A DNA stretch of 52,376 nucleotides, taken from positions 1-52,376 of the IMG/VR virus record IMGVR_UViG_3300002219_000849; one strand, given 5' to 3'. Positions 1 through 34,439 of the stretch are shown in pieces (positions within the stretch are counted from its first letter, which is position 1; every line of letters starts with the position of its first letter). The translations under genes were made by a program, and so were the position numbers. Source of the DNA: a virus. Taxonomy: Duplodnaviria > Caudoviricetes. The notes beneath the pieces are model-generated. The model was given only the letters and a program-made list of their open reading frames with translations, did no database searches and was not told the origin of the DNA.

Positions 1-600
1 ATGAACAACCAACTTAAAACTGATATTGATTTTAATAATCTATTTATCAGTGAGAATTTAAAACGACTTAGACTTCTTAATAATTTGTCAACTGTCCAAA
101 TAGGTAAGGTTATCAATAAATCTAGACAAGGATATGTCAATTATGAAAATGGATCTCGTGAGATATCGATTCATGATCTCATTACATTGTCCGGATTTTA
201 TAATGTCAATGTTGATGAACTCATTGGCAATCCATACAGCAATAGAAACGATAAAAGACTGACCTTTCGGTCGTTTGAATATTTGAACAATGTAATTGAA
301 CCCTCCCAACAGATGGTATTATCTACCATAAATGATGACGTAATTGTTGTTAAAAAGAACGAACTTGAAATTGATTTTTACTGGCGCACACAAACGAATC
401 AACACAATCATGTGATGCTCTTTGAATATTATGACAAAACATATACTTCGAAAGTGTTTTTAAATAAAGATAAAGGTGGAATTTTCTTCATCAATGATGA
501 GCCTAAGTATTTTACAAAAGCAAATGCAGAAAACATGCTCTTTAAAGGAGTCTACATGGCTACATTGAATAAGAATTTTGTAATTGAAAACTTCTTCTAA
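1..600 (+). CDS. XRE-family HTH transcriptional regulator (repressor-like)
   Basis: N-terminal XRE HTH (NLKRLRLLNNLST..SRQGYVNYENGSREI); full-length paralogue of 48350-48946. Confidence 0.85.
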   Translation: MNNQLKTDIDFNNLFISENLKRLRLLNNLSTVQIGKVINKSRQGYVNYENGSREISIHDLITLSGFYNVNVDELIGNPYSNRNDKRLTFRSFEYLNNVIEPSQQMVLSTINDDVIVVKKNELEIDFYWRTQTNQHNHVMLFEYYDKTYTSKVFLNKDKGGIFFINDEPKYFTKANAENMLFKGVYMATLNKNFVIENFF

Positions 601-649: not shown

Positions 650-715
650 ATGTGTGGTAAATCAGATAAACATTGTCATATCTTTTTTCTTACAGATGAC
701 AAGAATCCTTTCGGT

Positions 716-740
716 GGAATTGCTTAGGCAGTTCCTTTTT
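716..740 (+). terminator. Leader intrinsic terminator upstream of the SHOCT gene
   Basis: GGAATTGC-TTAG-GCAGTTCC followed by a T run; homologue at 49066-49093. Confidence 0.7.
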
Positions 741-773
741 CTTTGCATAAAAAAAGCGTCAAAAATCAATAGC

Positions 774-947
774 ATGAAAACAATTATAACAGATGAAATG
801 AAATATAAAATTTCAAAAACAATTATATTAAATTTGCTACAACAGCAGCTTATTACTGTTGATGAGTTTAATAAAGTTTTATACGCCCTAGCAAAAATAT
901 ACAACGTGACAGATCATAATACTCAAAGCAACACTATAGATGCTTAA
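774..947 (+). CDS. Small SHOCT-like protein upstream of the LSR (candidate recombination accessory factor)
   Basis: MKTIITDEMKY..LLQQQLITVDEFNKV; paralogue at 49120-49302; ATG at 774 chosen by homology. Confidence 0.7.
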   Translation: MKTIITDEMKYKISKTIILNLLQQQLITVDEFNKVLYALAKIYNVTDHNTQSNTIDA

Positions 948-1006: not shown

Positions 1007-2731
1007 ATGCAAAATAAAACTGTAAGAATTATACAACCAAAAGTTCATGTCAACCTAGACGATTTATCAAGACCCATATTAAAGAAGCGTGTCTGTGCAT
1101 ACGTCAGAGTATCAACAGACAATCTAGAGCAAAAAACAAGTTATGAAGCACAAAGAGAGGAATATACCAAAAGAATATCGGAAAATCCTGACTGGGAATT
1201 CTGTGGGATCTATGCTGATGAAGGCATATCAGGAACAAGCACAAAGAATAGAAAACAATTCAACTTGATGATAGCAAGAGCAAAGAAAGGTGAACTTGAT
1301 ATCATCTTAACAAAGTCCATATCACGCTTTGCAAGAAATACAGTTGATGCGCTCAACTTCATTAGAGAGTTACGTAAAGTTAAAGTTGAGATTTTCTTCG
1401 AAAAAGAGAATTTAAGCTCAATTGATCCTAAAGTCGAGTTCTTCTTCACGATGATGGCATCCATGGCTCAGGAAGAGGCAAGAAACGTTTCAGAGAACGT
1501 TAAGTGGAATGTCCAAAGAAGATTTAGAGAAGGTGTTCCGATAATTAATCATGCTAGGTTCTTAGGATACACAAAAGAAAAGCGTGGTGGTAATTTGGTT
1601 ATAGAACCTAAAGAAGCTGAGATAGTTAAACTCATATTTAACTTGTACATTGGTGGCTTAGGTCCTTCTGCTATTGCAGAAAGAATGATGGAACTTAAGT
1701 ATAAAACAGGTGCTGGTAAAAGCCTATGGCGGGTATCGACTGTAGCTTCAGTATTAAAGAATGAAAAGTACATGGGTAACATGCTGCAGCAAAAAACTGT
1801 CAGTACCGATTATTTAAATCATACAAGGGTAAAAAACAAAAATCACGCACCAACATACTATACCGAAAACAGTCATGATGCAATTATTAATAAAGAAACA
1901 TTTGACTTAGCACAACACATCAGAAAAGAACGTGCTCAAGTCAGAGTCGGTGAAAACAAGAACTTATCAAAATATACAAACAAGTATCCATTTTCTGCGA
2001 TGATCATCTGTAGCGAATGTGGTAGAACCCTAAAGAGACGTTATTGGAATTATGGTTCAAAGTCTCAAAGAGTGATGCAACAATGCGGAAACTACATTGA
2101 TGGAAAAGCACACTGCAATGCCAAGGCGAGTTACCAGGAAGTCTTAGAAGGCACAACGATTCAAATGTTGAATGAAGTATTCTTAAAAGATTTAAACATC
2201 ATGGATACAATAAAAAACGTCATCAAATCTACACTTGTTATGGATGACTTACAAAATGAGATTGATGGGATGAATCTGGAACTTCAGGAAACAGAAAACA
2301 TGCTATCAAACTTAATCGACACGAGAGTAAAAACTCCAGGATTTAGCGAATCGATCTTTACCAACAAATATAACGAATACACGAGTAAAATGAATTATCT
2401 ATCAAAAGAGATATCAAAACTTGAACTTGAACTTGAACATGTTAAAACTTTTGATACAAAACAAAGACTCGATACAATCAACACTTTGCTTAAGAATAGA
2501 GATTTAGTCATTGACACGCTAGATTCAGATATCCTTGGATCATTTATCTACAAGATGATTTCGGTTAATCCTGGAGAAGTTGTATTCTGTGTCGCAGGGA
2601 CAAAGAATTATTCAGATACTGAGTTTTCTGATAATAGAAAAAAGTTTTTAAAACTTAAGCCAATCTATACCGGTGCTTATTACAATAAGAAATATGATAA
2701 ATCGATGGATTATAGAGTAGTAATTATCTAA
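1007..2731 (+). CDS. Large serine recombinase (resolvase + recombinase + Zn-ribbon domains)
   Basis: CAYVRVST catalytic Ser motif, YADEGISGT, KSISRFARN, CSECG zinc ribbon, coiled coil. Confidence 0.95.
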   Translation: MQNKTVRIIQPKVHVNLDDLSRPILKKRVCAYVRVSTDNLEQKTSYEAQREEYTKRISENPDWEFCGIYADEGISGTSTKNRKQFNLMIARAKKGELDIILTKSISRFARNTVDALNFIRELRKVKVEIFFEKENLSSIDPKVEFFFTMMASMAQEEARNVSENVKWNVQRRFREGVPIINHARFLGYTKEKRGGNLVIEPKEAEIVKLIFNLYIGGLGPSAIAERMMELKYKTGAGKSLWRVSTVASVLKNEKYMGNMLQQKTVSTDYLNHTRVKNKNHAPTYYTENSHDAIINKETFDLAQHIRKERAQVRVGENKNLSKYTNKYPFSAMIICSECGRTLKRRYWNYGSKSQRVMQQCGNYIDGKAHCNAKASYQEVLEGTTIQMLNEVFLKDLNIMDTIKNVIKSTLVMDDLQNEIDGMNLELQETENMLSNLIDTRVKTPGFSESIFTNKYNEYTSKMNYLSKEISKLELELEHVKTFDTKQRLDTINTLLKNRDLVIDTLDSDILGSFIYKMISVNPGEVVFCVAGTKNYSDTEFSDNRKKFLKLKPIYTGAYYNKKYDKSMDYRVVII

Positions 2732-2822: not shown

Positions 2823-3073
2823 AATTTTTATTACATTTATTTAAAAAACATATGACAATATATAGAAAAAAGGACTAACCAGTCCACAACCTTGTTTGTG
2901 AAAACATAAAGTGTATTTGAGCGCTTTATATAGCAATTTATTAACTTTAAAACTAACGAAAAACATAAAAAATATGTTCCCCCTAACAAACCTCGACTAT
3001 TATTTTTACTATAAATCGCTTAAAAATATGTTGTCACAATAGTTTCGACATGTTCCCACATTGTATCGAAAAC

Positions 3074-3118
3074 AAAAAAAGAAGCGTTTTATACCATTTT
3101 AAGGTAAGAACGCTTCTT
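3074..3118 (-). terminator. Terminator downstream of the rlmD-like 3' replacement
   Basis: GAAGCGTT..AACGCTTC stem preceded by an A7 run (U run on minus strand). Confidence 0.6.
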
Positions 3119-3141
3119 GATTAATTATTACTATGGCTTAA

Positions 3142-3186
3142 CTACGCGGTTTTTAATGAAAGCAATGTGATAGTCTCAACGTGCGT
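3142..3186 (-). pseudogene. rlmD: 3' fragment resembling 23S rRNA m5U methyltransferase (RlmD/RumA), carried in the att arm
   Basis: Minus strand translates THVETITLLSLKTA*, matching the RlmD C-terminal motif (T-x-HVETxxLL). Confidence 0.65.
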
Positions 3187-3325
3187 GCAGTTACTCCCAT
3201 TGCTCGAAAATATGCCAAATAATATGTGTCGGAAACATATTTTTAGGCATTTTATGTTCCCCCATTCCAGACTTCTTTAACATCGGAAACATATTATACC
3301 CGAAAATTTGTTTTATCATCAAACT
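3150..3325. repeat. att-like site 1 plus arm (direct repeat with 6189-6364)
   Basis: AGCAATG(3161)...ACG[TG]CGT...CATTGCT(3204), symmetric about 3182/3183; ~175 bp homologous to the second copy. Confidence 0.8.
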
Positions 3326-3327
3326 CA

Positions 3328-4197
3328 TTATGCCAACTTTATGAAAATAGACCCATTTTTATAGTTTTCAATAAATGATTGATAGTAGTGTTTAACTTCA
3401 TCTATACTGAAAGAAATTACTTCATTAAAATCGATATATTTACATATGTGTTGAATCAGTTTGGCACCTAAATAATAACCGGCGTCTGAATGATTGTTAT
3501 ACAAAGCCCAATCACCAAAGTATCGCTGATTTTGAATATTCATTGTTTCTATGTCTTTTATAAAATCTTTCTTTAACTGGACTAAATGATGATCATAGTA
3601 CTTCTTCCATTTTCCATCATCTTGATGAAAGTATGAAAAATCTCCAACAAGCATTTGTTCGAAGTACATTGCAACCCCTTCAGTAAATAATTGCCATAAG
3701 AATTGATCACTTAAGTTATTAAACGTTCGTTCTAGAATACCGAATTGCTTTTGATATACATGACCCAATTCATGATAAATTAATCCAATCATTTGGTTCA
3801 TATTGTCCCAGTTTAGTTCGATTATTTTTTCAATTCCAAGTAATACCTTTGTTTGACCATTAATATCAGTCACCCATCCAGCTCCGTTACATAAGCCAAG
3901 ATATAAAATGATTTCTACATCTAAGGATCTGTGAAAATGGCTGATTATATTTGATTCAAGGTTTTGTGTAATTTGATCGAATATTTCTCCGACTTTAACA
4001 ATTCTACTTATATTCAAGAAAACATTATTAAGAATAGGAAGACATTTTGAATTGAAATCATAATCCTTGATATCTTCTAGAAACATCGATGAAGCATTAG
4101 GAATTACCGGTTCTATATAACTCTTCCATTTCTCAATAGAAAAAGATCCGTTAACATAAATTTTTTCAATTTGCTCAATCGCTTTATATGTTCTCAT
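3328..4197 (-). CDS. Putative Zn-dependent metalloprotease-like protein (DUF2268-like)
   Basis: HELGH zincin motif, downstream TEGVA and AGYYLG; AAAGGAG RBS favours ATG at 4197. Confidence 0.65.
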   Translation of the reverse strand: MRTYKAIEQIEKIYVNGSFSIEKWKSYIEPVIPNASSMFLEDIKDYDFNSKCLPILNNVFLNISRIVKVGEIFDQITQNLESNIISHFHRSLDVEIILYLGLCNGAGWVTDINGQTKVLLGIEKIIELNWDNMNQMIGLIYHELGHVYQKQFGILERTFNNLSDQFLWQLFTEGVAMYFEQMLVGDFSYFHQDDGKWKKYYDHHLVQLKKDFIKDIETMNIQNQRYFGDWALYNNHSDAGYYLGAKLIQHICKYIDFNEVISFSIDEVKHYYQSFIENYKNGSIFIKLA

Positions 4198-4309
4198 ACA
4201 TACTCCTTTCAATATGGCATACTCCGATATCGTCAAACACGTTAAGTATTAGATCGTTGTATATTTGTGCATCACTCCAATTTAGTACTAAAAAATAGCG
4301 ACTTCATTT

Positions 4310-5614
4310 TTAGTCTTTCAAACAACCAATGGGTACAATCTTCACGCCATCATCTCGCGTATATGCAAGTTCTCCACCGGTTATGACCATCAAGAAATCA
4401 GGTTCTCTTAGTTTGGGAGAGGATTCTTCGAGATTGTAATGCTTAATTAATAAAGAGAGTTTTAATAAATGCTTTGCAGCGTCTTCGATATCCTTGTTCC
4501 CAAGTTTATATTCAATGAGTGCATATCTTCCATCACGTAACCTTAATACTCCATCCGCTTCTAGTCCATAGCGATCATGATAATATGATAACTCAGAGCC
4601 CATGGTTTGTGAATACACTTTTAAATCGCGATTGCATAAGCTTTCGAAAATAAACCCAAATGTATGCAAATCTTGCATGAGCATCTCAGGGGTTAATCGT
4701 AAAGCCGCCACCGCGATAGAGGGGTCAATAAAGCCTTTTTTATTACTAGATCTGATGGTGGTTGCAGATCTGATGGCGGGATTCCAAGCAGGAATATCAT
4801 CGATAACAAAGACTCTATTCAAAGCATTGATATACACATAGAACGTCGATTCAACAATCTCAGTAGAATTGGCATTCATATCTCTTAATATCGTCTTATT
4901 GGTGGCTAATGTAGAAATATTTCTTGCGTACGATTGTAATAATGCCCGAACGCGCTTTGGATCCTTCTTCACTCCATCGACTGTTGAAACATCGGTTTCA
5001 CAGATGGTATCCACATAGGATTGTGCAACAAACAAACTTGCTTTATCACTTTTTTTACCTAGTGTCGATGGCCATCCACCTCTGCATGCAGAAAAAATTA
5101 ATCGTTCAATCGATAGATCAGATTGAATTCCATCGATGTTGAGATTTGTGTTATCAAACAAACTTTTAATGGAAATTTTGCCGTTCGATTCCCTTGATTC
5201 ATACAGACTCATTGGACGCATCATCAAACGAGAAATGCGACCAACACCGGAATGCATGATTTGAGAATCGTCAATAGTCGTTGAACCTGTTAGAATGAAC
5301 TGTCCTTCTGCTGAACGATCATCAACAACTGTTCTCACTGCATCCCAAAGCACTGGTGCAATTTGCCATTCATCAATCAATCTTGGAGTATCGCCAATCA
5401 AAAGTAGTGACGGTTTAGTCCGTGCCGTAGCGAGATATGCTTCTGTTTTATCAGGATCTTGCATCCTCAACACACTCTTTGCCTCTTGCATCGCTGTGGT
5501 CGTCTTGCCACACCACTTTGGTCCGACAATCAAAACAGCTCCCATAGCATCAAGATGGTCTTTTAACTCTGAATCAATAATTCTTTTATAATATTCCGTT
5601 GTCATTTGTTTCAA
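4310..5614 (-). CDS. AAA_14 ATPase with DUF4143 C-terminal domain
   Basis: Walker A GPKWCGKTT, LIDEWQ Walker B, FILTGS, GGWP, C-terminal EADG..LIEYK nuclease-like motif. Confidence 0.9.
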   Translation of the reverse strand: MKQMTTEYYKRIIDSELKDHLDAMGAVLIVGPKWCGKTTTAMQEAKSVLRMQDPDKTEAYLATARTKPSLLLIGDTPRLIDEWQIAPVLWDAVRTVVDDRSAEGQFILTGSTTIDDSQIMHSGVGRISRLMMRPMSLYESRESNGKISIKSLFDNTNLNIDGIQSDLSIERLIFSACRGGWPSTLGKKSDKASLFVAQSYVDTICETDVSTVDGVKKDPKRVRALLQSYARNISTLATNKTILRDMNANSTEIVESTFYVYINALNRVFVIDDIPAWNPAIRSATTIRSSNKKGFIDPSIAVAALRLTPEMLMQDLHTFGFIFESLCNRDLKVYSQTMGSELSYYHDRYGLEADGVLRLRDGRYALIEYKLGNKDIEDAAKHLLKLSLLIKHYNLEESSPKLREPDFLMVITGGELAYTRDDGVKIVPIGCLKD

Positions 5615-5661
5615 CTCTTTGTCTTCATATTATCTTATTTCCTTTCGAATGTCAATCGCAA

Positions 5662-5890
5662 TCGGTGTTTTTTGATTATTAATGACGGAGTACTTTGACA
5701 ATTATAAACGGAGTACTTTGTGATGAAATGCATAAGAATATCATTCAATAATCTTAATAACCTATATCCTTGTGTATTTGATAAAACTCAACTGAAGTAA
5801 ATCGGATAATTACAAAGTACACTTGTTTGTTATCATTGTGCATTTTTTGCTAATGTAATTGTGCATTATATCATGTTAATGTTGTGCAAC
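5662..5890. repeat. Degenerate 23-bp-period direct repeats
   Basis: ACGGAGTACTTTG at 5685 and 5708 (degenerate copy at 5662); TTGTGCA at 5836, 5859 and 5882. Confidence 0.6.
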
Positions 5891-6072
5891 TTGTCAGTAT
5901 TTCAAAAATGCTTTTTGATAGTGATAGAGGACCACTATTGGGAACCAATCCAGGATGATATCTAATTATCTTAGAAATAAATGTGTTTCCACTCACGAGG
6001 ATGGCCTCTGTTTTCGTTGCTTTTTTTGGCTATACTATGTTTCCACAAGGGACAAAATTTGCTCATTTAGAG

Positions 6073-6113
6073 AAAAAAAGCCATCTGACCCTTATTGAAG
6101 GTATCTGATGGCT
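6073..6113 (-). terminator. Hairpin/terminator homologous to 51121-51160
   Basis: AAAAAAAGCCATC...GATGGCT. Confidence 0.6.
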
Positions 6114-6186
6114 GTCTTTATTGGATTCGTTAGATTTTGTTTGATTTAAAAACGTTGTCAAGTATGTGTCAAGTATATAACAAGCG

Positions 6187-6225
6187 CTATTTTAATGAAA
6201 GCAATGATATCGTTTCAACGTGCGT
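6187..6225 (-). pseudogene. rlmD: Second rlmD-like 3' fragment in an att arm
   Basis: Minus strand translates THVETISLLSLK*. Confidence 0.65.
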
Positions 6226-6364
6226 TGAGTTACTGCCATTGCTAGCAAAAATGCAGAATATTGTGCGTGGGAAACATATTTTTCGCCATTTTATGTTCCC
6301 ATTTACAAGACTTTTCGAACATGAGAAACATATTTAACTCAAAAACTAGTTTTTCTTCATACTA
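6189..6364. repeat. att-like site 2 plus arm; left boundary of the prophage
   Basis: AGCAATG(6200)...TCAACG[TG]CGTTGA...CATTGCT(6243), symmetric about 6221/6222. Confidence 0.8.
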
Positions 6365-6394: not shown

Positions 6395-6787
6395 TTATTT
6401 TTTTTGAAGATTGTTTTTATGACGTTGTTCATCTTTCGATAAGGAAATTCTTATCAGTGAAATTAATAAAATGGGCAAATTCAAAAATAATAGAATGGCA
6501 CAAAGAACCCACAATACATGTACCTGTGTAATAAGATGTAAAACTAAAGTGGTTACTCCTAATACATTTACTGCATAAAATAACAAAATCATGATAAAAG
6601 AAAACTCAGAGATTGATTTATCTTTTTTCATCCACTTAAAGAATAAAACGTTGGCTTTTTTAAGTTCGATAAATTTGACTTTTCTTATATTTGACTTTTC
6701 TAAAAATCTCAACTCTCTATCGATAAACGAAAGAAATACAAATGTTATTACTGCAAGTATATATAATCCTATTAATAATTCATACAT
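6395..6787 (-). CDS. Hypothetical membrane protein (~3 TM)
   Basis: Three hydrophobic segments; GAGGTG RBS. Confidence 0.7.
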   Translation of the reverse strand: MYELLIGLYILAVITFVFLSFIDRELRFLEKSNIRKVKFIELKKANVLFFKWMKKDKSISEFSFIMILLFYAVNVLGVTTLVLHLITQVHVLWVLCAILLFLNLPILLISLIRISLSKDEQRHKNNLQKK

Positions 6788-6887
6788 TGATCCAACACCT
6801 CTTCACTTTTAAGACATTGCTTGTACTATCAAGTACAAATGATTCAATCAACTTTTTATATCATAAGCTGAAAACAATTGACTAGTA

Positions 6888-7208
6888 TTAACTATTTTTA
6901 TGATAATTCAGCTCAATAATGATCATTTTTTCCCAAACTTCTTTGAGTGTGAGTTTCCCTTTTCGACCAAAATTAAACATCTTCAATTCTTCTTTGAATT
7001 TCCTATAAAAACTAATGCTTTCGGTTAAGTCAGTTACAAGATCCACACGGATAATGACGGCCTCATTTCCATTGCTCAATTTATCAACTATTCTTTTAAT
7101 AATACAATTGTTATAATGCGAATAACCCTCAACTGAGAATCTTATTAACTCAATACTTCCATTGTTAATTCCTGTAATAAACTCACTATAACTGATTTTA
7201 TCAACCAT
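6888..7208 (-). CDS. Hypothetical protein
   Basis: ORF; AAGGAG RBS favours ATG at 7208 (MVDKISY). Confidence 0.65.
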   Translation of the reverse strand: MVDKISYSEFITGINNGSIELIRFSVEGYSHYNNCIIKRIVDKLSNGNEAVIIRVDLVTDLTESISFYRKFKEELKMFNFGRKGKLTLKEVWEKMIIIELNYHKNS

Positions 7209-7278
7209 TATACTCTCCTTTTTCTTTAATAAAATTTTGATTGAATCAAATTTAACGAAACTGTTTGTTTGCATTGTT

Positions 7279-8043
7279 CTATCCTAGTTTAAAATACGCC
7301 TTCGATGGAATTGTGTTCACAAATCGAGGATCATCTTTATCATTCTTTGCTCTATTTAATTCATTAATAATAAAAGGTTTATAGAATGGATTAATCAGAT
7401 TTGATAAGTTAATGACATTTGCTGTTAAGCTATCACTAAATACATTATCCACAATGCATTCGTCAAAATCCTCATATACAAATAACATTCTGTGGTGACT
7501 TACAGCATTTCTAAGTCCCCTTACTGCTCGAAGATTAATCTCTAAATTTTCATTTCCATTAAATAGTATATACAAGTCATCTGGATTTAGTTTTTGAGTG
7601 AGTTGCATCAATTCATTAAAACCTAAATTTTCGAGTTCTTTTGATAAGTTACTACCATCTTCAACAGCATTGTATATCTTCATTGATAAGGATTTGATTT
7701 TATCCATTGAATTATAATGATTTGATATATATCCCCTAATCCCTTCTTCTAAAGCAGATAAGAACTTATATAGAATGTATCTTATTCGTTTATCATAAAC
7801 ATACATGTTTTGAACTTTTTTATATTCGATTTTTCCGTTGTCATCTAGACCAATGTAGTTCGCTAAAACAGCATGATATGCAACACCTTTTAAATCCAGA
7901 TATTGCTCACAACGTTCTAATTCATCTGGGTTATTAAAAATCATTCTTTTTATAAAGTCTGCTTTACTTATATGCAAAAGCAGCTTTTTATCTTTTTTCT
8001 CAGTTCCAATCATATCGATTGTATACATTATTGATAGCCTCAA
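7279..8043 (-). CDS. Abi_2 (AbiD/AbiF-like) HEPN-domain protein
   Basis: MYVYDKRIRYILYKFLSALEEGIR helix and LRNAVSHH RxxxxH motif; true start may be 8013 or 8028. Confidence 0.75.
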   Translation of the reverse strand: MRLSIMYTIDMIGTEKKDKKLLLHISKADFIKRMIFNNPDELERCEQYLDLKGVAYHAVLANYIGLDDNGKIEYKKVQNMYVYDKRIRYILYKFLSALEEGIRGYISNHYNSMDKIKSLSMKIYNAVEDGSNLSKELENLGFNELMQLTQKLNPDDLYILFNGNENLEINLRAVRGLRNAVSHHRMLFVYEDFDECIVDNVFSDSLTANVINLSNLINPFYKPFIINELNRAKNDKDDPRFVNTIPSKAYFKLG

Positions 8044-8659
8044 AGAACAAAGAGAAGGATTTCTTTTCTCTATCCTGATTATTATTTTTTATCTTCAAAT
8101 ACTCATCTTTTACTTCTTGCCATAATCCATTTGCTTTTAAGTTCGACAATTTATCTGAATGATTTTTAGCATATGGTCTCTTGTTCCAGATATACGTGTC
8201 ATCTTCTCTTTGCCAGATCAATATTTCCTGAATTGAGTCACCAACATCATCTACATAGTCATTAACTAAAGCAAAATCACAACTATGAACTATTCTACTG
8301 TTATCATGATCTATAAATTTGAAAGTCATGGATTGCTTTCCTGAAGAGACTGTTGAATACCCAGTACCTTGCAATATCATTTCAAGTTCGCGTTTTACTT
8401 TTAGTCTTAAGTCTTTAGCGGATAGATCTCCATCTTTTTGGATTCCCAAGTTATAATCGAAATCAAAACCAGTATTCCCGTTAATGACTCTAGTTACAAG
8501 ATGTTTACCACCACTGCCTACTAACTTGAAAGTGAATGTCACTCCAAATACACGCATAGAATCTTGAAGCGCATTAATGATTACTTCAACTTGATCTTTG
8601 ACAGGGTTCAATTCAGATTTTGGTACAAATTCATATGTTCTACCTGCATAGTCACTCAT
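8000..8659 (-). CDS. Pol-beta-fold nucleotidyltransferase
   Basis: LVGSG, FDFDYNL (DxD) and a third acidic residue in SCDFAL; GGAGG RBS; overlaps the Abi gene. Confidence 0.7.
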   Translation of the reverse strand: MSDYAGRTYEFVPKSELNPVKDQVEVIINALQDSMRVFGVTFTFKLVGSGGKHLVTRVINGNTGFDFDYNLGIQKDGDLSAKDLRLKVKRELEMILQGTGYSTVSSGKQSMTFKFIDHDNSRIVHSCDFALVNDYVDDVGDSIQEILIWQREDDTYIWNKRPYAKNHSDKLSNLKANGLWQEVKDEYLKIKNNNQDREKKSFSLFFEAINNVYNRYDWN

Positions 8660-8692
8660 AATTTTATCCTCCCTAACAGTCTATTAGATATT

Positions 8693-9850
8693 CTATCTAT
8701 CAAACAATTTTTTCGTTTGGTCAATCGATAAATGATTACTTAACTCAGTTTGAAACCTTGATTCTAATCTCTCCAGTATATCGCGCTTAAAGTCGTGTAC
8801 GTTCTTAAAAGCTTTATTTGATATAAACGCTTTTACTAAAGCCGCTTCTCGCATAGAAGTGACGAGTTTGATATTATTATTGTCAATATAATTAAAGACT
8901 TTTTGGATCGTTTTCCTTACCCATGAATAATCATCAGATAACAATTTAGGCAAATCATTATCACCATTTAAAGGCAGTACTTTTGATATTAGATTACCAT
9001 AAATACTAGCAATATTGTCAGCGAGTTGTACTTCTATTGTTCGCTTACTCTTAACAAAATCTATTTTTGTGGTATTCCAGTAGTGCTTAATATAGTCCTG
9101 CACGACCTCAATCTCATCATGAAAAACAACAATTTCATTATTGGATAAATCCTTTATATTATGCTTCATCATAAGGATGGTTTCACCAAGTGCAGTCAGA
9201 TTAACTATATTGTTTCTGTCGGATTTTTTTATACGTACATTTTCCGAAATTGTATCATATAAATATTCGACAAATTCCCCTCTATGTTCCAATCCTTCAA
9301 CCAATTGTGATATCTCCACAGCAATCATGGCTTCAAAAGGAGATGTAACACATTCTGCAAATTTATGAAGCTTAATATAGGCTACAAACTCTCTCAAATT
9401 TTCTATCGTATTATTTTTAGTAAGATTTATATATCTAGTCAGAAAATAATCATCAACCTTCATCAAAAACAACAAGAATTTATGATACATATTGAAATCA
9501 AAATCTCTGAGACCCATGAAGAACCAATTAAGAAATTGTGATACTAGAAAAAATTTCTTGTCGTATATTGTAACATAAATGTTGTTACCTTTTATAAAAG
9601 TTGAGATAAATTCTTCGAGTGCCGAATTGTTCTTTCGAGTCAACAGATCTGTACCTTTAATCTCATCCATTTCAACGCCATTGTTTACAAACTTATTCCA
9701 CTTATCTTTGAAACTCAAATATGATTGTGTTATCGATTTATCCTCTATATAACCGACTATAACAAAATATCTTTGTCCGAAATAATTAAGTTTATCCCCG
9801 TTAATACCTATTTCACCAGTATTACGAGATTCATCAAAATATATGTTCAT
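8693..9850 (-). CDS. DUF3800-family (RNase H-like fold) protein
   Basis: N-terminal IYFDES, EIKG, HDE and C-terminal VQLADNIAS motifs. Confidence 0.75.
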   Translation of the reverse strand: MNIYFDESRNTGEIGINGDKLNYFGQRYFVIVGYIEDKSITQSYLSFKDKWNKFVNNGVEMDEIKGTDLLTRKNNSALEEFISTFIKGNNIYVTIYDKKFFLVSQFLNWFFMGLRDFDFNMYHKFLLFLMKVDDYFLTRYINLTKNNTIENLREFVAYIKLHKFAECVTSPFEAMIAVEISQLVEGLEHRGEFVEYLYDTISENVRIKKSDRNNIVNLTALGETILMMKHNIKDLSNNEIVVFHDEIEVVQDYIKHYWNTTKIDFVKSKRTIEVQLADNIASIYGNLISKVLPLNGDNDLPKLLSDDYSWVRKTIQKVFNYIDNNNIKLVTSMREAALVKAFISNKAFKNVHDFKRDILERLESRFQTELSNHLSIDQTKKLFDR

Positions 9851-9858
9851 TGAAATAC

Positions 9859-10487
9859 CTACTTGATTATTGACTGAAAGTATATTGACGACAATATATC
9901 TTCCATTCTTCTATATAAAGCTTTATTACCAAAAGATGACGCAAATTGATCAACTGTTATTTTAAAGAAAGCGTATAAGATGGCTACTAATAAAATATAG
10001 ATATCATGAGCTGGAATCTTTCAGATGAGATTGTATTATCATCGAAAGAAAAGGCAACTATTGAAATTATTATAGCGACCAGACTTAGAAAGACTCCAGA
10101 TCCTATAATATTCCTTGGAACCAAAGTTTGATAATGTCTTATTGCTTCTAATACTTTAGGACGAGTATTAATACTATTCTTCTTACATATCTCTGCAAGT
10201 AGTTTAGCATCACGGGATTTTCTCTCATCAATATAGAATTGAATGTTTTTTTTGAATTTCCAATAATTAATTTTAGTATTACAATATTTTTTTACAAGAA
10301 AAAATATGTATGTATATTGGACAGGTACAATAACCAAAGTTAGTCCATAGCTATACCAGATGCTACCAAGAATTCCTGACAATAAAATTGATAGAATCGT
10401 GTAGCTAATTGATAGAAGTAAAATGAATGTCATATCCCTTTTATGCCATGAGTTTTTTTTAAAATCTTTTTCAATAATATAATACAT
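9859..10487 (-). pseudogene. Membrane protein interrupted by a 1-nt frameshift near 9992
   Basis: ORF 9987-10487 stops at MISIFY*; one extra T restores LLVAILYAFFKITVDQF...QSIIK*, ending 8 bp before the DUF3800 start. Confidence 0.65.
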
Positions 10488-10508
10488 AAGTTCACCCCCA
10501 AAAAATTA

Positions 10509-10973
10509 CTATACAAATACCTTATCCTTAATAACACTAGGAACTATTGTTTTTACTTCAAAAAACTCGAAAATCTTGTGATGTGTAAATCCAATCGCAT
10601 CGATTTCAATTTCTTGATTCAAATATGCTATGTCATCGATTTCATTATTATTTCCAGAAGGCTTAATATAGTTCAATGTTTCATACTCCCATTTGTCTAG
10701 AGTATCTGTTGACTCCATGGACTTGGTTCTAATACAATACCCCTGGTAAGCGTGTCTAGTTTCATGAAATGCTGTGATAATGACTTCAATCCATGGTGAT
10801 TTTTCGACCCATTCTTCATTAAATATGATTTCATCAGACTCGAAAAGATACATTCCAGTAATCTCTCTATTTGATACTTCTTCTGGATCAAAGAAGCTGA
10901 TCTGTGGTTCTGGTATATTTAAAATCTTAGCTACTATCTTTACGCCATTAATTGCTACTTCGTAATTATTCAT
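10509..10973 (-). CDS. HExxH metallopeptidase-like protein
   Basis: AFHETRHAYQ and YLNQEIEIDA (third ligand Glu) motifs. Confidence 0.75.
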   Translation of the reverse strand: MNNYEVAINGVKIVAKILNIPEPQISFFDPEEVSNREITGMYLFESDEIIFNEEWVEKSPWIEVIITAFHETRHAYQGYCIRTKSMESTDTLDKWEYETLNYIKPSGNNNEIDDIAYLNQEIEIDAIGFTHHKIFEFFEVKTIVPSVIKDKVFV

Positions 10974-10985
10974 GTTAACCTCGAA

Positions 10986-11046
10986 ATTTGTATAGTTTAA
11001 TTATAACATCACACTTAATAGAATAAAAATGAAAAATGACCACACC
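10986..11046. repeat. 61-bp direct repeat copy 1 (contains minus-strand extended -10 promoter)
   Basis: 59/61 identical to 11985-12045; TGTTATAAT on minus strand. Confidence 0.9.
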
Positions 11047-11296
11047 TTGGACCTCTATGTTGCATATATTGTTAGATTATCTTTTCTTATTTATCTGAGT
11101 TCATCGTCCTGTTTTGTTATGATGTGCCATTAATAAAAACTAGTTCTATGATATCTCCTTATATATTTGTGATATACAAGTTTTCATTGCCATTATAGTT
11201 CATACTTAAAAATGCTCCATCCACATCATAAGTAGAGTGTAACGAGATCCCATTACTTCTACTATCAGCTAAAAAATACAATTAATCAACCAAATC

Positions 11297-11977
11297 TTAA
11301 GAAGATTTATTCTTTATAGAACCACTTTCAATATATTTAGTTATCCATCTTCCAGAAAGTATCTCGTCATTTTTAGCATTCATTAAAATATACATTAAAT
11401 CTGGATCCATATATTCTGCGGTTGTCTGCTGCAACTCATTTTGGTATAGCTCCAACAGTTTTTCTGTATTCTCGTGTAATAACTTCTGACGATCACTTGC
11501 TACTCTATATATAGCATCAGATACCTTAAAAACTTTTTCTACAATATCAAGTAAACTTTTGTTTTCAAGCAACTGTCTATGCCCAACTTGATTGTTCATC
11601 TTCATACTATTTATAGGATTAAAATGACACACATAATTCCTATACTGCTTGATTTCTTCTATAACACTTGAATCACCGTCATAATATTTGTTCAACTCAC
11701 TTCTCGTTATTCCTCCATCATCCAAACATGTAGCTAAAGATACAACAAAATATGAAAAAACCATATAATGTTTGGATGTGTGTCCTTCCATTGTCATAGT
11801 TTTGTAAAAATGCTTATTTTTTTCTTTTTTAAGTTCCGATTCAAACATTTCTTTAAGTTGAAACATCCACACTACATTCCGAATAACTGTTAACATTTTT
11901 GATAGTTCATTAAATAGTCTATTTGATTCATTTTTAACATGTGTTATATACTTCTTGTCGATTTTTTCATCCCCCAT
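11297..11977 (-). CDS. Putative HEPN-domain protein
   Basis: Helical protein with YRNYVCH (RxxxxH). Confidence 0.55.
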   Translation of the reverse strand: MGDEKIDKKYITHVKNESNRLFNELSKMLTVIRNVVWMFQLKEMFESELKKEKNKHFYKTMTMEGHTSKHYMVFSYFVVSLATCLDDGGITRSELNKYYDGDSSVIEEIKQYRNYVCHFNPINSMKMNNQVGHRQLLENKSLLDIVEKVFKVSDAIYRVASDRQKLLHENTEKLLELYQNELQQTTAEYMDPDLMYILMNAKNDEILSGRWITKYIESGSIKNKSS

Positions 11978-11984
11978 CTCGTCG

Positions 11985-12045
11985 ATTTGTATAGTTTAAT
12001 TATAACATCACACTTAATAGAATAAAAATAAAAAATGACCATACC
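11985..12045. repeat. 61-bp direct repeat copy 2 (promoter)
   Basis: 59/61 identical to 10986-11046. Confidence 0.9.
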
Positions 12046-12069
12046 CGATTGAGAAATAAGGTATGGTCA
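12030..12069 (-). terminator. Late-operon terminator
   Basis: TGACCATACC...GGTATGGTCA stem with T run on minus strand, right after the 12074 stop. Confidence 0.75.
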
Positions 12070-12073
12070 ATTA

Positions 12074-12559
12074 CTATTTCTTTAGTTGTTCTTGTATAAT
12101 TTTCTCAGCTGCAGATAAAGTCGCCCTTCCCTGCATCTTATTGCTGAAGGAAATATAGTCATCAATGATCGCTTCTATCTTGGATTGATTGGTCTCGACA
12201 AACTCTACTGCTTTCTCAGTTGAACCTGTCAAATTGCTCACCCACTCGCTTAATCGTGATACAACAGCGAGTTTTTTATCATCTCCAATTAAATAGGCTT
12301 CACCTTTTTCTTTGGCAAGCCTATTCTTTTCCTCGACAATCATAATGAATTCTTTGATGGTTTTTTGAACACTTTCATCAAAGACAACTTCTTTTGCTTT
12401 GGTAACGAGTTCAGAAACATTCTCTGCAGTGTTCTTGAGGTCTTGCTTCACCTCTTTGATCACATCACTCAGTGATTGATCTTTACTCATCTTTGATGTA
12501 ACATAGAGAGCTAGTAACAAGAGTGACGCTATCAGTAATACGATTTCAAGTGTTGTCAT
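12074..12559 (-). CDS. Holin-like membrane-anchored protein
   Basis: Single N-terminal TM, helical body with GDDKK motif reminiscent of LL-H-type holins; lysis-module position. Confidence 0.5.
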   Translation of the reverse strand: MTTLEIVLLIASLLLLALYVTSKMSKDQSLSDVIKEVKQDLKNTAENVSELVTKAKEVVFDESVQKTIKEFIMIVEEKNRLAKEKGEAYLIGDDKKLAVVSRLSEWVSNLTGSTEKAVEFVETNQSKIEAIIDDYISFSNKMQGRATLSAAEKIIQEQLKK

Positions 12560-12872
12560 TTTCTTTTCCTCCTAGGCGTTTATAGATATTGACTTGCGAA
12601 TCCTCTAATCTGGATACCCGATGTTCTAAGACATTGACATCCTTTTTTAACGATTTGATATCTTGTGCGTGCATCTCTAATAGATTTAACATCTTGATGT
12701 TTTGCTTCTCTATCGTCTGAAGATTGGTGAGAATCTCATCGTTATTCGTTTTATTCTTTTGTTCCTGACGATTAAACTGCTTGATTGTCGTCATGATAAC
12801 AACTACCATGGTCACAACCCAATAAACCAGATTTTCCATTCTAAATAGACTGAGTAAGTTATCCCAGTTCAT
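12546..12872 (-). CDS. Holin-like single-TM coiled-coil protein
   Basis: One TM followed by a coiled coil (LEHRVSRLED); lysis-module position. Confidence 0.5.
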   Translation of the reverse strand: MNWDNLLSLFRMENLVYWVVTMVVVIMTTIKQFNRQEQKNKTNNDEILTNLQTIEKQNIKMLNLLEMHAQDIKSLKKDVNVLEHRVSRLEDSQVNIYKRLGGKENDNT

Positions 12873-13527
12873 TGCTAATCACCTTATTCCTGTAGTTTTC
12901 GATGTAATTCAGTGCTTCCCTTAATAGTGGCATGTATTCTTTACCTTTGTTGTTATTCCAGTTTTTCTTATATTCAATCATCATAGTGTACCAGGGCTCA
13001 GGGATAATATGCTCATATTTTCCGACTTGATCCACGTGATCCAATATGCCTCTTACCCTTAGAATGTGATAGTGTGACTTTTGAGGGTCTGGATAATCGA
13101 TACGCATTTGGTAGTGTTCAACAAAGCTTGATAAAAAAAGACCTAACTTGCTTGTTAAGTCTATGTTCTTATAGGCTTCGTATTCATCTTTGTAGTTTTC
13201 ATCTAAATAGATAAGATTATCTTTAGTTGATAAAACCTCATCAATATATGCACGATCATAAAGTGGAACAGATGGATCTAAGTTTTGTTTCTTTAGATAG
13301 ATGTCTCTGCCATAAGCAAAAATATCTAATTCACCCAAACTCAAATGAACGTTACCTTTGAATCCATCAAGTACTACCGTCACATCATCATCGCTATTTT
13401 CATCACTTATTCCAAAGGCTAAAGATCCACAGTAATAGATAAACATCACTATGGTGTTTGGAAACAAGCCTTGAACAATTTCTAGAATACTCTCTTTACT
13501 GCGGATTCTTGGTTTCACTTGGAGCAT
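12859..13527 (-). CDS. Predicted nucleotidyltransferase (pol-beta fold)
   Basis: YCGSLAFGISDENSDDDVTVV = GS..DxD motif, later LDIF. Confidence 0.75.
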   Translation of the reverse strand: MLQVKPRIRSKESILEIVQGLFPNTIVMFIYYCGSLAFGISDENSDDDVTVVLDGFKGNVHLSLGELDIFAYGRDIYLKKQNLDPSVPLYDRAYIDEVLSTKDNLIYLDENYKDEYEAYKNIDLTSKLGLFLSSFVEHYQMRIDYPDPQKSHYHILRVRGILDHVDQVGKYEHIIPEPWYTMMIEYKKNWNNNKGKEYMPLLREALNYIENYRNKVISNELG

Positions 13528-13831
13528 GAGCAGTCCCTTCTACCACATCAAAATCATCGAGTGAGTCATCGAATCCTACTACATTATCTTTTAACCATAA
13601 GTAACCTTGAGCAATTGGATTTGATTCAGCGAATAAACTAAAATCAGACTCCGGAACTTCGATGTCAATTTCTTCTAGAGGTGCATGACGATTGGCACGT
13701 GCTTCTTTGGATAGATAGGAAGCGACACAAACAACTGCTTTTTTTGATACATAGTTGATGTTAAATGCGGTAATACGGTGATAGGATAAAGCGACGCCAA
13801 ACTTAGATTGCATGTCTTTAATGATTGCCAT
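13496..13831 (-). CDS. Phage tail-associated hypothetical protein
   Basis: Position after tail fibre genes; YHRI..VASY motif. Confidence 0.55.
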   Translation of the reverse strand: MAIIKDMQSKFGVALSYHRITAFNINYVSKKAVVCVASYLSKEARANRHAPLEEIDIEVPESDFSLFAESNPIAQGYLWLKDNVVGFDDSLDDFDVVEGTAHAPSETKNPQ

Positions 13832-13837
13832 AATAAC

Positions 13838-14518
13838 CTACTTTCTCGCTGTGCGATAAATGGACACTGAAATGAGATCAGGTGATCCCAAGTCTAGTCC
13901 AGGATTAATTAAAAGATTTTGTGGAACTCCACCAATTGAATGTGCAAACTCAGTCATGGTGATGGATGCATTCGCTTGCCCAGTCACTGTCGTCACACTT
14001 CTACCTGTAGATAACCATTGTCTAACATCAGTAAATCCGGTTGAAAAAATGGGAGTAAGTTGAAAGGTAATCGTTTTAGATATTCCACTTGCAAGGGTTA
14101 TACCACTGGAATAACTATCCGGAATAGCAAGTGAGGTTGAACTGCCATTGAACATTTTTGTGACACCACTTGCCACATCGTTTGCATAGGTAGCAAGTGC
14201 AGAACCACTAATATTTGATAAACCCGATGTTCGATAGTTAATCGTAGTAGATGATGTATCTATTGTGCTTCCATAGGTAGTTGCTATCACCACAATCGTG
14301 TAAATGTATGCTGAGTTAAAAGCATAAGAAACGCTGATTGAGCTTGCTGCTGTTTCAATTGAATACACAAGTTCTAGTTCTCCACCTACCTTCACAACTG
14401 ACGTTGAATTTCGGGCGTAGAGGGCGTTGTTTGTATAGTCAAAGGCTAACTCGCCTACATACGCTAAGTTCGCTGTTGAAGGCTTTGTTGTGCCTCGTTT
14501 CACCCGAAGGATTGCCAT
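13838..14518 (-). CDS. Tail fibre/receptor-binding protein
   Basis: N-terminal ILRVKRG..GELAFD fibre-anchor motif; Ser/Thr-rich. Confidence 0.65.
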   Translation of the reverse strand: MAILRVKRGTTKPSTANLAYVGELAFDYTNNALYARNSTSVVKVGGELELVYSIETAASSISVSYAFNSAYIYTIVVIATTYGSTIDTSSTTINYRTSGLSNISGSALATYANDVASGVTKMFNGSSTSLAIPDSYSSGITLASGISKTITFQLTPIFSTGFTDVRQWLSTGRSVTTVTGQANASITMTEFAHSIGGVPQNLLINPGLDLGSPDLISVSIYRTARK

Positions 14519-15369
14519 TAGTAAGTACCACCATCAATGATGGATGAAGGCTGTAAAACCTTAGTCGTATCGATACCAATTGCATATTTAACAACACTTG
14601 GTGTGTAGTTCGAATCGATGTACTGATAAAGTTTTATCCCACCAGATAATACTGCAGCATCAAAGGCCGCTTGCGAAACCATGAATTCTGAGCCAGCACC
14701 TGAAAGAATTCGAGTATTCAGAACGTTAGCTAATATAGATTTTTGAGTTGTTGTTAAATGCACATCTGCAGCTACGTGAGCATTATACGTAGTTGTTGAA
14801 ACACCACCTAGTCCTGCAAGTGTAATGGTGACTGCACCAGTCGATCCGTTAACGCTTGTAACTGAATCTGTTGGTGTCAGTAATTCTTGCCAGTTAGCCA
14901 GAGTTGCATATCCAGTTGTTTTCAATATGAATGACTTATTAATGTCCGTTCTGACTGCAACGTCACCCTCTTGGGCATTTGACAAAGCTAACATCGCTGC
15001 TTGGCTTGCTACAACCCATGTGTTTGTTATAGCGACTTTCGGAATGACTGAATCTGCTAATTTGCCGTCAGCATCCAAAATCGGAATGTTTCCATTACCA
15101 GTGCCTGTATTCTTAGTTGCTGCAGTTCCTAAACCTAAAGCTGTGATTTTGGTATCGATTTGTGTATCGACTTTTGCTACACCAGGAATCTTTAAGTAAT
15201 CGGATTCAACAAGTGGGGTCCCTACTGATCCTGTCTTATCAGCCTTGGCGATGAATAGATGCTCGCCATTAAAATCGACTAGCGGTTCTCCAGCTTTAAT
15301 CGTTCCAGTACTTCCAGTAAGCGGACCAGTGCCAGCTGTTGTACGTCTTTTTATTTGAATAGTTGCCAT
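14518..15369 (-). CDS. Tail fibre protein
   Basis: MATIQIKR..GEP N-terminus, LGLGTAAT, AQEGDVAVRTD and VTSVNGSTGAVT repeats typical of fibres. Confidence 0.75.
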   Translation of the reverse strand: MATIQIKRRTTAGTGPLTGSTGTIKAGEPLVDFNGEHLFIAKADKTGSVGTPLVESDYLKIPGVAKVDTQIDTKITALGLGTAATKNTGTGNGNIPILDADGKLADSVIPKVAITNTWVVASQAAMLALSNAQEGDVAVRTDINKSFILKTTGYATLANWQELLTPTDSVTSVNGSTGAVTITLAGLGGVSTTTYNAHVAADVHLTTTQKSILANVLNTRILSGAGSEFMVSQAAFDAAVLSGGIKLYQYIDSNYTPSVVKYAIGIDTTKVLQPSSIIDGGTY

Positions 15370-15381
15370 GATAATTCCTCC

Positions 15382-16158
15382 TTATTTTTTAAGATATGCT
15401 TGTGTAACTCGATGTGTTGTATTACCCAATGACAAAGTGACGAGTCCATTTGAATAAGATATACCTAGTGAATAATCAGAGCCCGCGTATCTGTAGCTCA
15501 TGGACGAGTTCGAGCCAACGACAATAAATAGCTGATTAGTCGGTAGGCTCACCACAGTTGTGTTTTCAATGACAACATAGAGTATGCTTTCCATCAAAAT
15601 TGCAGAATTTACGTCACCAAAGCGATAAACACCATTACTAATCTTAGTTATCAACAACTTTTGTGGATAAAATCGATCGTTGACTTTTGCTTCAAGATCA
15701 CTGATTCGTTGTTTGTCTGATGTAATCGCACTTCTTTCAAAACCATTGATAAGGGTTACTGAAGTCGTTGTTTTAGAATATGCAGCTAATGCAAACTCAT
15801 AAAGCCCATCCGCATTCTGTAAATTGTTTTGGGTTAGAACAGGATATGTTCCAACTGCTTCTTTGATATAAATACTTACTGTGTTCGCTTGAGTGTCAAT
15901 CCCAAGAACTACATAGCCAAACTTGTTAGAATCTGGCGTGACTGAAACGGTAGTCATATTTTCCAGATAGATAATACGTCCATGAATGCTAACATAACCA
16001 TCCAAAAAAGTGATGGTATTATTGGCTAACGTGTAACTACATCCTGACTTAACGTTTCGTAAGATTCCAACGTCACTTGAAAATAAAAAATGATACAAGT
16101 CTGCATCGATTTTCGATGTGACATTTGCACCATCAAAGGTAATTTTTTGAACACCCAT
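15382..16158 (-). CDS. Baseplate upper protein-like
   Basis: Position; LTQNNL..GLYEFALA motif. Confidence 0.6.
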   Translation of the reverse strand: MGVQKITFDGANVTSKIDADLYHFLFSSDVGILRNVKSGCSYTLANNTITFLDGYVSIHGRIIYLENMTTVSVTPDSNKFGYVVLGIDTQANTVSIYIKEAVGTYPVLTQNNLQNADGLYEFALAAYSKTTTSVTLINGFERSAITSDKQRISDLEAKVNDRFYPQKLLITKISNGVYRFGDVNSAILMESILYVVIENTTVVSLPTNQLFIVVGSNSSMSYRYAGSDYSLGISYSNGLVTLSLGNTTHRVTQAYLKK

Positions 16159-17282: not shown

Positions 17283-17284
17283 AC

Positions 17285-20121: not shown

Positions 20122-20142
20122 CTATACTCACCTCTTTATCTT

Positions 20143-20173
20143 AAAATAAAAAGCACATCGTTTTTTGATGTGC
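20143..20173 (-). terminator. Moron terminator immediately upstream of the tape measure gene
   Basis: GCACATC..GATGTGC stem plus T run on minus strand. Confidence 0.7.
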
Positions 20174-20206
20174 CTAATAAATATATACAATTAACAAACT
20201 CTATCT

Positions 20207-21166: not shown

Positions 21167-21279
21167 CCCAAAGTCTATTTACATATATTGTATCACTCAT
21201 GTTAAAAAATGTACTAGTGACTTTTAAATAACATTTTATTTCACTTGTGATAATATAAAGTTAATGGAGGCGATTAAAA

Positions 21280-21453
21280 GTGATTGAATATAAAGTAGTT
21301 GCAATTCGTATACCAGCTTTCAAGTCAAAAGAAACTGGTGCTGAAAAAATTCAAGAAGAAATGAACAAACATGCAAAAAATGGTTGGAGAGTTCATAAGG
21401 TTAATATCACAGATCTAACTATGGTCATAATTACATTTGAGAAAGACAACTAA
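21280..21453 (+). CDS. DUF4177-like small protein (57 aa; absent from the ORF track)
   Basis: GGAGG RBS, GTG start; MIEYKVV..MNKHAKNGWRV..ITFEK. Confidence 0.75.
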   Translation: MIEYKVVAIRIPAFKSKETGAEKIQEEMNKHAKNGWRVHKVNITDLTMVIITFEKDN

Positions 21454-21456
21454 GTG

Positions 21457-21997: not shown

Positions 21998-22010
21998 GGT
22001 TCAATCCTCC

Positions 22011-23912: not shown

Positions 23913-23932
23913 GTTCAATCATCCTTTCTCTA

Positions 23933-25063: not shown

Positions 25064-25081
25064 GATTTTTCTCCTTTTGAA

Positions 25082-27063: not shown

Positions 27064-27074
27064 AGATTCCCCAC

Positions 27075-28217: not shown

Positions 28218-28221
28218 AAGT

Positions 28222-30203: not shown

Positions 30204-30212
30204 AACAGCACC

Positions 30213-30774: not shown

Positions 30775-30804
30775 GACAAGTACCTCCTAAGGTTAGTAAT
30801 ATAT

Positions 30805-30852: not shown

Positions 30853-30870
30853 TCTTAGTGATTAGATACT

Positions 30871-34428: not shown

Positions 34429-34439
34429 GTTTTTATCCT

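Follow-up and report, generated by a model that had tools for sequence, protein, structure and literature searches.

Staphylococcal composite islands of the cassette chromosome (SCC) are arrays that occupy the 3' end of rlmH (orfX) and are driven by large serine recombinases (LSRs), namely the CcrAB pair. Their units occur with and without recombinase genes and are parted by repeats that carry the gene end. Tandem accretion of integrative elements together with decayed cis-mobilizable elements (CIMEs) is described, in the sections of the source on such islands, for the ICESt1/ICESt3 type (PMC5704250). In streptococcal elements that are integrative and conjugative (ICEs) or integrative and mobilizable (IMEs), a single serine integrase targets rumA; according to the part of the study dealing with rumA, att is located within the integrase gene, and rumA and int exchange their 3' parts with a change of frame and length (PMC4701971). 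Temperate phages with serine integrases use att sites of 40-50 bp with a 2-nt crossover, as outlined in passages of two further sources (PMC3783163, PMC12286644). In this work, we analysed a 52,376-nt stretch of the Caudoviricetes record IMGVR_UViG_3300002219_000849 (the window, corresponding to C36:181470-233845 of the metagenome bin G000), and in particular two repeated sites, A and B, at its positions 3142 to 6364. Sites A and B are very probably internal junctions of a tandem array of about 67 kb built by LSRs at the 3' end of the host gene rlmD. The observations behind this proposal are the anatomy of the sites, the mosaicism of their arms, the breaks of homology at a central TG, the intact LSR and rlmD genes, and the occupied and empty-looking rlmD sites of relatives. 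Coordinates without prefix are those of the window.

The first-pass annotation of the window had noticed two homologous segments, each with the dyad AGCAATG..CATTGCT around TG, and, on the minus strand, RlmD-like C-termini followed by a terminator. All of these were recovered. A repeat search of the window placed positions 3151-3314 and 6190-6353 in one direct-repeat family of 164 nt with 79% identity, which is far beyond chance. The 11-mer shared by the two sites is weak evidence alone, with two matches in the window versus 0.52 expected and two reached in 11 of 100 shuffles. The 9-mer core occurs only four times in the 1.59-Mb genome, all on contig C36 within 15 kb. The dyad spans 44 bp at both sites, 3161..3204 at site A (AGCAATG 3161-3167, TG 3182-3183, CATTGCT 3198-3204) and 6200..6243 at site B (AGCAATG 6200-6206, TG 6221-6222, CATTGCT 6237-6243). 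The spacing from heptamer to TG is 14 nt on each side, at sites A and B alike, and the TG on the dyad axis is non-palindromic. Such a short imperfect dyad with a non-palindromic 2-nt crossover is, as far as sequence can indicate, the form expected of an att site. Read from the core on the minus strand, site A encodes the spare RlmD C-terminus HVETITLLSLKTA and a stop codon (3142..3183), which is borne by the P arm and is identical to the tail of the intact rlmD in 29 of 33 nt; site B encodes HVETISLLSLK and a stop codon (6187..6222). Folding found a minus-strand hairpin with a U-run after the tail at site A (-16.6 kcal/mol, z -3.3) and at site B (-18.5 kcal/mol, z -3.4); it was used instead of a terminator scan with a loop limit of 8, which had missed both hairpins.

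The arms on the two sides of each TG belong to different units. Site A joins unit 3 on its left to unit 4 on its right, and site B joins unit 4 to the prophage. The type I P arm at the right end of unit 3 (2950..3181) contains a terminator hairpin at about 3080-3119 besides repeats of the GGRAACAT type. Two further junctions outside the window, S2 and S3, have left flanks that match it with 72-75% identity over 165-169 nt. Next to this P arm comes the type a P' arm of unit 4 (3184..3314), 78% identical to the right arm of site B. At site B, the type II P arm (5957..6220, with a terminator at 6074-6114) is the right end of an LSR2-type element that is now without its LSR gene, and the type a P' arm of the prophage (6223..6353) shows 98% identity over 40 nt to the left junction of an insert on contig C10. 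The 8-mer GGRAACAT was counted on either strand in 15 copies within 200 nt of six cores (2.4 kb), versus 47 copies in the whole 409-kb contig, and in the window it is seen within 2972-3294 and 5981-6333. Its offsets are fixed: type I left arms have it at -154 and -132, type a right arms at +49, +72 and +103. In rlmD, this word also makes up the DMFP codons, 12 nt from the crossover.

The annotation had also predicted rlmD on the minus strand to the right, and the gene was found there, intact, at C36:240118-241467. It is one of two RumA-family genes in G000, both on the minus strand of C36 (the other at 140550-141908), and it was assigned to RlmD by NCBIfam (TIGR00479, 416 bits vs a cut-off of 183.55). 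It encodes 449 aa ending in SHVESITLLSLK before the stop codon and lies 6.3 kb right of the window end. The open reading frame (ORF) at 51210-52376 on the minus strand of the window was rejected as a candidate rlmD, as it encodes a GT4 glycosyltransferase instead. Similarity of the host rlmD 3' end to the arms, on which the proposal had been made to depend beforehand, was indeed present: homology to the left arms covers the last 33 coding nt of rlmD and some 180 nt downstream of it. The region downstream of rlmD (C36:239976-240142) is 78% identical over 180 nt to the left flank of site B. Compared over 40 nt, the left arm of the rlmD junction reaches 70-75% identity with its counterparts at S2, S3, A and B, versus 52% with the native-like arm of the outermost junction, S1. 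On the other side of the junction, where the right arm is rlmD coding sequence, the identity to other right arms is only 15-32%, and the homology ends at the TG.

When the arms were used as blastn queries, the junction at rlmD came up as a fifth site, together with two junctions on contig C10. Six junctions are thereby placed on C36, with their TG at 172882 (S1, 8.6 kb left of the window start), 175482 (S2, 6.0 kb left), 178296 (S3, 3.2 kb left), 184651 (site A), 187690 (site B) and 240152 (in the 3' end of the intact rlmD). All six share one orientation, and the left-to-right order is S1, unit 1, S2, unit 2, S3, unit 3, site A, unit 4, site B, the LSR2 prophage, an 8-gene block with an LSR 3' remnant, and rlmD. 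Thus rlmD does not adjoin the prophage; eight chromosomal-type genes and the LSR remnant stand between them. Left of S1 lies a convergent gene for an H+-pyrophosphatase, with CsoR and CopA genes farther out. From its position and its absence of arm homology, S1 is likely to be the displaced, native-like end of rlmD. The idea that sites A and B are hybrid junctions of at least three units therefore stood with respect to the units, as the sibling LSR element, the 3-kb cassette and the prophage are all present, and had to be enlarged with respect to the array, which has at least six junctions and not two.

Three right-arm types and two left-arm types are found in mixed combinations across the units. 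In G000, S2, S3 and site A have type I left arms, and site B and the rlmD junction have type II left arms. Arms that assort independently, together with a homology break at the TG, fit junctions made by LSRs. The junctions on contig C10 show the same break. The right arm of the left one is 98% identical to that of site B, with only 28% for the left arm; at the right one, the left arm is 88% identical to that of site B, with only 32% for the right arm. The base before TG at the C10 left junction is unlike all P arms, and the base after TG at the right junction is unlike all P' arms. If both junctions were made by one conservative exchange, the overlap would thus be TG. These junctions (C10 6810 and 7955; L005, L085) enclose 1.1 kb with one membrane-protein gene. 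The arm sequence bordering this insert amounts to 66 nt of prophage-type right arm and about 41 nt of type II left arm, and both stretches end at TG. Synteny links the membrane-protein gene to G001:C54, which showed no arms. An empty site for this insert, with its two flanks joined, was present in none of the 16 same-genus genomes.

Evidence from sequencing runs was taken from assembled Logan contigs of runs X1, X3, X4 and X6 (21 runs were found). S1 and site A are each bridged by single contigs in X1 and X3. Directly beside the TG of site B, two loose contig ends change their flank, one from X4 on the left side, before position 16190 of L059, and one from X3 on the right side, after position 16191; in an X4 contig, a type I arm continues through TG into the body of rlmD. 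Each of these three is a single contig and gives weak support. Other joints in the run contigs, for example 3968>16182 and 6070>15940 on L059, have sides of 20-46 nt within the repeated arms and may reflect cross-mapping between homologous units.

Two intact LSR genes are encoded in the window. LSR1 (574 aa; 1007..2731, plus strand) has the Pfam domains Resolvase, Recombinase and Zn_ribbon_recom and matches the integrases of PHROG 95 (1.4e-124). LSR2 (572 aa; 49360..51078, plus strand) is 61.7% identical to LSR1 and has the same three domains. The catalytic domain PF00239 was detected in both (E 2.6e-32 for LSR1, 9.3e-31 for LSR2) with the serine motif AYVRVSTD, as were PF07508 and PF13408, and LSR1 also matches PDB 3g13 (1.1e-35). 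Neither is a Ccr recombinase, since the best match in both cases was the CcrB model with 146.6 and 134.6 bits versus a cut-off of 900. The stop codon of LSR1 precedes the site A core by 450 nt, and in LSR2-type ends the core lies about 240 nt past the stop. In other genomes, a type I left arm follows LSR1-like genes (70% identical) at a distance of 195 nt (L042, L044), and a type II left arm follows an LSR2-like gene (77% identical) at 240 nt (L072). Moreover, LSR C-terminal remnants are found directly left of S2 (89 aa), of S3 and of the rlmD junction. It is therefore plausible that LSR1 and LSR2 act on these sites. The crossover and arms that had been announced for the two LSRs were obtained in part: TG is supported, and of the arms only the P arm of LSR1 and the P' arm of the prophage are given. 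The left arm of site B belongs to an LSR2-type remnant lacking its LSR, and not to LSR2 itself, so neither LSR has a complete attP from sites A and B. Paired LSR genes with 35-40% identity to LSR1 and LSR2 were also observed in G000 at C10 60695-63858, C3 22010-25217 and C14 76928-79109.

The units between the junctions are compact. Unit 1 (S1-S2) encodes a transglutaminase-like protein, a Fic protein (PADLOC SoFic, 1.1e-96) and the 89-aa C-terminal LSR remnant. Unit 2 (S2-S3) encodes a 223-aa unknown protein, an AAA_14/DUF4143 ATPase (PDC-S01, 4.9e-63) and broken LSR C-terminal fragments of about 70 aa. Unit 3 (S3-site A) is 6.4 kb long and contains genes for an ABC ATPase, three small unknown proteins, an HTH_3 regulator, a SHOCT protein and LSR1. 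Its Xre-type HTH_3 regulator (1..600, plus strand; PF01381, E 3.3e-10) is a homologue of the regulator of the prophage at 48341-48946, and the small SHOCT protein (654..947, plus strand; PF20612, E 2.8e-5) lies upstream of LSR1. The leader at 899-1042 is homologous to 49251-49395 upstream of LSR2 (repeat families D4 and D6). Unit 4 (site A-site B) carries a 302-aa protein (3328..4236, minus strand) with no Pfam, PHROG, PADLOC or NCBIfam match and a second PDC-S01 ATPase, a defence candidate with AAA_14/DUF4143 (4310..5614, minus strand; Pfam; PADLOC PDLC04790, 4.2e-58); it is without an LSR gene, the terminator alone being left of the LSR end. The left flank of site B is collinear with the rlmD junction and with the whole post-LSR region of L072, from about the LSR stop codon, and unit 4 is thus an LSR2-type element that lost its LSR. 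Units 1, 2 and 4 are defence cassettes of 2.6-3.0 kb without an integrase that keep both flanking att sites, as CIMEs do, and they appear to be decayed elements that may be usable in trans. Between the 302-aa protein and the 223-aa protein (C36:175616-176287), the partners of the two PDC-S01 ATPases, only a faint match that includes an HExxH-like motif was seen (E 0.065). L045 and L065 encode the SoFic protein with 94.6% identity, and in L045 the SoFic cassette lies between two full sites, with homologues of the left-end genes of this prophage beyond the second one.

The full 44-bp pattern was found in 16 genome stretches and four viral contigs. The 16 stretches belong to Acholeplasmataceae metagenome-assembled genomes (MAGs), Paracholeplasma vituli and Liberiplasma polymorphum, with one each labelled Erysipelotrichaceae, Izemoplasmatales and Bacillota. 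Relatives were compared at 14 same-genus rlmD loci. Three of the 14 (G012, G010 and G011) look empty, with a plain tail followed by unrelated sequence, and no LSR was present within the 6-13 kb examined in G012 and G010. On the other hand, an LSR C-terminal remnant directly follows rlmD in G013 and G008, element-type rlmD tails were found in G009, G015, G016 and G002, and G001 has a type II-like rlmD end. At six of the 14 loci the contig ends at most 315 nt past rlmD. The G008 rlmD tail is the same as the S3 tail in 33 of 33 nt, although the RlmD proteins are only 76% identical, which indicates that the tail travels with the elements.

We hypothesize that the array grew as follows. The left half of the attP of each element, the P arm, would encode a replacement RlmD C-terminus with its terminator, and crossover would take place at the TG within the codon for His in the ...SHVE... 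tail. If the P arm supplies the RlmD end in this way, integration leaves rlmD intact, and the previous gene end would be pushed leftwards. A later element could then re-enter the rlmD-proximal junction, which would be attB-like on the rlmD side and would encode the same tail on the other. The resulting junction would consist of the P arm of the older unit and the P' arm of the newer one, and it would look like a full, symmetric, attP-like site. At such a junction, the older unit would stand to the left of the newer one.

Several results weigh against accretion by LSRs alone. After LSR2, no right att site of the prophage was detected, neither as a core at up to one mismatch nor as arm homology (blastn word size 9), and a prophage without a right junction implies that at least one step was not a clean site-specific recombination. 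To our knowledge, canonical LSRs are restricted to attP x attB, and the accretion would probably require integration into an attR-like junction. S1 is not supported as the native end by tail similarity, with 17-22 of 33 nt shared with empty-looking relatives versus 21-24 of 33 for element tails. Among the run contigs, no excised circle or empty-site joint was found, and S2, S3 and site B were not bridged among the contig pieces listed, to which 461 pieces outside the list have to be added. Furthermore, the SoFic cargo is 85% identical to that of L045 over 2071 nt, a homology that is not bounded at the cores and is accompanied by a different P' arm type, which suggests that homologous recombination also shuffles the array. 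The last result is what would be expected if the island had arrived en bloc, or had been built mainly by homologous recombination between arms, with the internal sites as inherited relics. Such exchange could use as substrates the arms (130-230 nt, 72-79% identity) and the LSR ends (81-91%), and the depth in X3 is flat at about 365 across 18 kb. We consider this unlikely, as three right-arm and two left-arm types are mixed and the breaks fall at the TG wherever the partner is unrelated; accretion would still be required somewhere, so that the place and time would be altered and not the nature of the sites.

It is also very unlikely that the order of units is partly an artefact of assembling a metagenome bin, with repeated arms misjoined and the joint between prophage and 8-gene block among the errors. 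G000 consists of 38 contigs at 90.7% completeness, the run contigs break near S2, S3 and site B, the contigs of six of the 14 relatives end at the rlmD locus, and the 8-gene block, which is chromosomal, shows synteny with the C10 locus in G001. However, S1 and site A are bridged as described above, the joint between prophage and block lies in unique sequence 46 nt past the terminator, and the two copies of the LSR end, only 81-91% alike, are too diverged for k-mer collapse. The palindromic form of the sites, the crowding of GGRAACAT (15 in 2.4 kb around the cores vs 47 in 409 kb) and the HTH regulators encoded nearby would all suit operators bound by proteins, or terminator modules, in place of recombination sites. 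This explanation is scarcely credible, because it leaves unexplained the in-frame RlmD tails that start from the core, the switch of flanks at the TG at eight junctions and the constant pairing with LSR genes or their remnants. Site-specific accretion at rlmD thus remains the reading that we prefer.

A further and more speculative idea, which we regard as possible and rather doubtful, is that the array works as a serine-recombinase integron, in which LSR-less defence cassettes (SoFic, PDC-S01) with full two-armed att sites are moved in trans by neighbouring LSRs. In that case, cassettes would be taken along by the phage if it excised through an outer site, and chromosomal genes such as the 8-gene block and the C10 insert would be carried off from secondary sites. 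The GGRAACAT repeats of the arms would then be extra protein-binding sites that choose the junction.

The prophage with LSR2 occupies about 45 kb right of site B. Its siphovirus-like body (6395..48168, minus strand) has PHROG matches for tape measure, major tail, major head, protease, portal, TerL, TerS, replication initiator and anti-repressor, and its HTH_3 regulator lies at 48341..48946 on the plus strand (Pfam; PHROG 8). A REase_II-like gene (PADLOC 5.9e-36), a gene for a 652-aa DNA methyltransferase and one for an 824-aa ATPase with weak defence-family matches were observed at 37626-44308 on the minus strand. A XerC/XerD-like tyrosine recombinase is encoded at 46785-47702 on the minus strand (PHROG 1, 1e-43; NCBIfam XerA/XerC-like below cut-off). 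In the left part of the prophage, 61-nt direct repeats with 97% identity (10986-11046 and 11985-12045, 999 nt apart; D5) surround a 226-aa ORF. Iterons of the form ACTTGA...CCACTTG with 11-nt spacing (45751-45809 and 37245-37281; D2) adjoin the replication-initiator gene, and type II left arms, as well as the sequence that follows rlmD in G001, hold short repeats like them.

Recognisable element sequence stops at the terminator after LSR2 (51121..51161; repeat family D7), and 46 nt past it starts the GT4 glycosyltransferase gene (51210..52376, minus strand), the first gene of the 8-gene block. The block extends from window position 51210 to C36:239811 and encodes GT4, patatin, TetR, DegV, HAD, an ABC permease and two ABC ATPases. 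It is followed at C36:239844-240056 by a second LSR 3' end with a terminator, 81-91% identical to those of LSR2, and then by the type II arm and rlmD. Good matches to the block were found in four of 16 relatives, G001 (89%), G006 (72%), G014 (68%) and G007 (71%). Six of the eight genes have counterparts with 89% identity in G001; these lie at a chromosomal locus syntenic to contig C10 of G000, and no att arms were present at that locus in the stretches examined (1-20000 and 13000-27876). A sixth LSR2-type unit may have decayed here and lost its junction with the prophage by deletion, in which case the block would represent its cargo or what remains of it.

These results provide sequence-level predictions for two uncharacterised serine integrases, namely the target gene, the 44-bp dyad, the TG crossover and the arm types, and the same site pattern is available in cultured relatives, Paracholeplasma vituli and Liberiplasma polymorphum. 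They mark the rlmD end as a hotspot for phage-defence genes in wall-less Acholeplasma-like bacteria and as a frequent break point of assemblies. They also raise the question of how an LSR that is strict for attP x attB integrates repeatedly into junctions that are half of P type. In the literature searched, no treatment of Acholeplasma serine-recombinase elements or of prophage integration at rlmD was found. Large catalogues of predicted LSRs exist, as the relevant part of one such source indicates (PMC10083194), and their supplements may already list these att sites.

Compared with serine-integrase phages, as far as the cited passages characterise them (PMC3783163, PMC12286644), the elements studied here have the same domain architecture, a dyad of about 44 bp and a non-palindromic central dinucleotide. 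They differ from them in conserved arms that extend 130-230 nt past the dyad with GGRAACAT repeats and in internal junctions composed of two P-type halves. With the streptococcal rumA elements, in the portion of the study that covers them (PMC4701971), they share a serine integrase specific for rumA/rlmD; unlike in those elements, the core here follows the LSR stop at a distance of 240-450 nt and the reading frame of the RlmD tail is preserved. Conjugation genes were not detected among the proteins scanned with Pfam and PHROG. As in the ICESt1/ICESt3 islands, judging from the sections that describe them (PMC5704250), integration is site-specific beside a resident element, the target gene receives its end from the element, and an older element decays to a unit without integrase that keeps both att sites. 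However, the elements of those islands are conjugative and use tyrosine integrases in place of LSRs (PMC5704250, same sections), whereas the units at rlmD are a prophage, a small element and defence cassettes of 2.6-3.0 kb, known from sequence alone. In its logic, the array comes closest to SCC, which is likewise an array at the 3' end of an rRNA methyltransferase gene. The target is rlmD (TIGR00479) and not rlmH, and each element has one LSR instead of the CcrAB pair. The accretion is thus of a known kind, that of CIMEs, SCC-like arrays and rumA-targeting LSR elements, here in a new Acholeplasma-like lineage.

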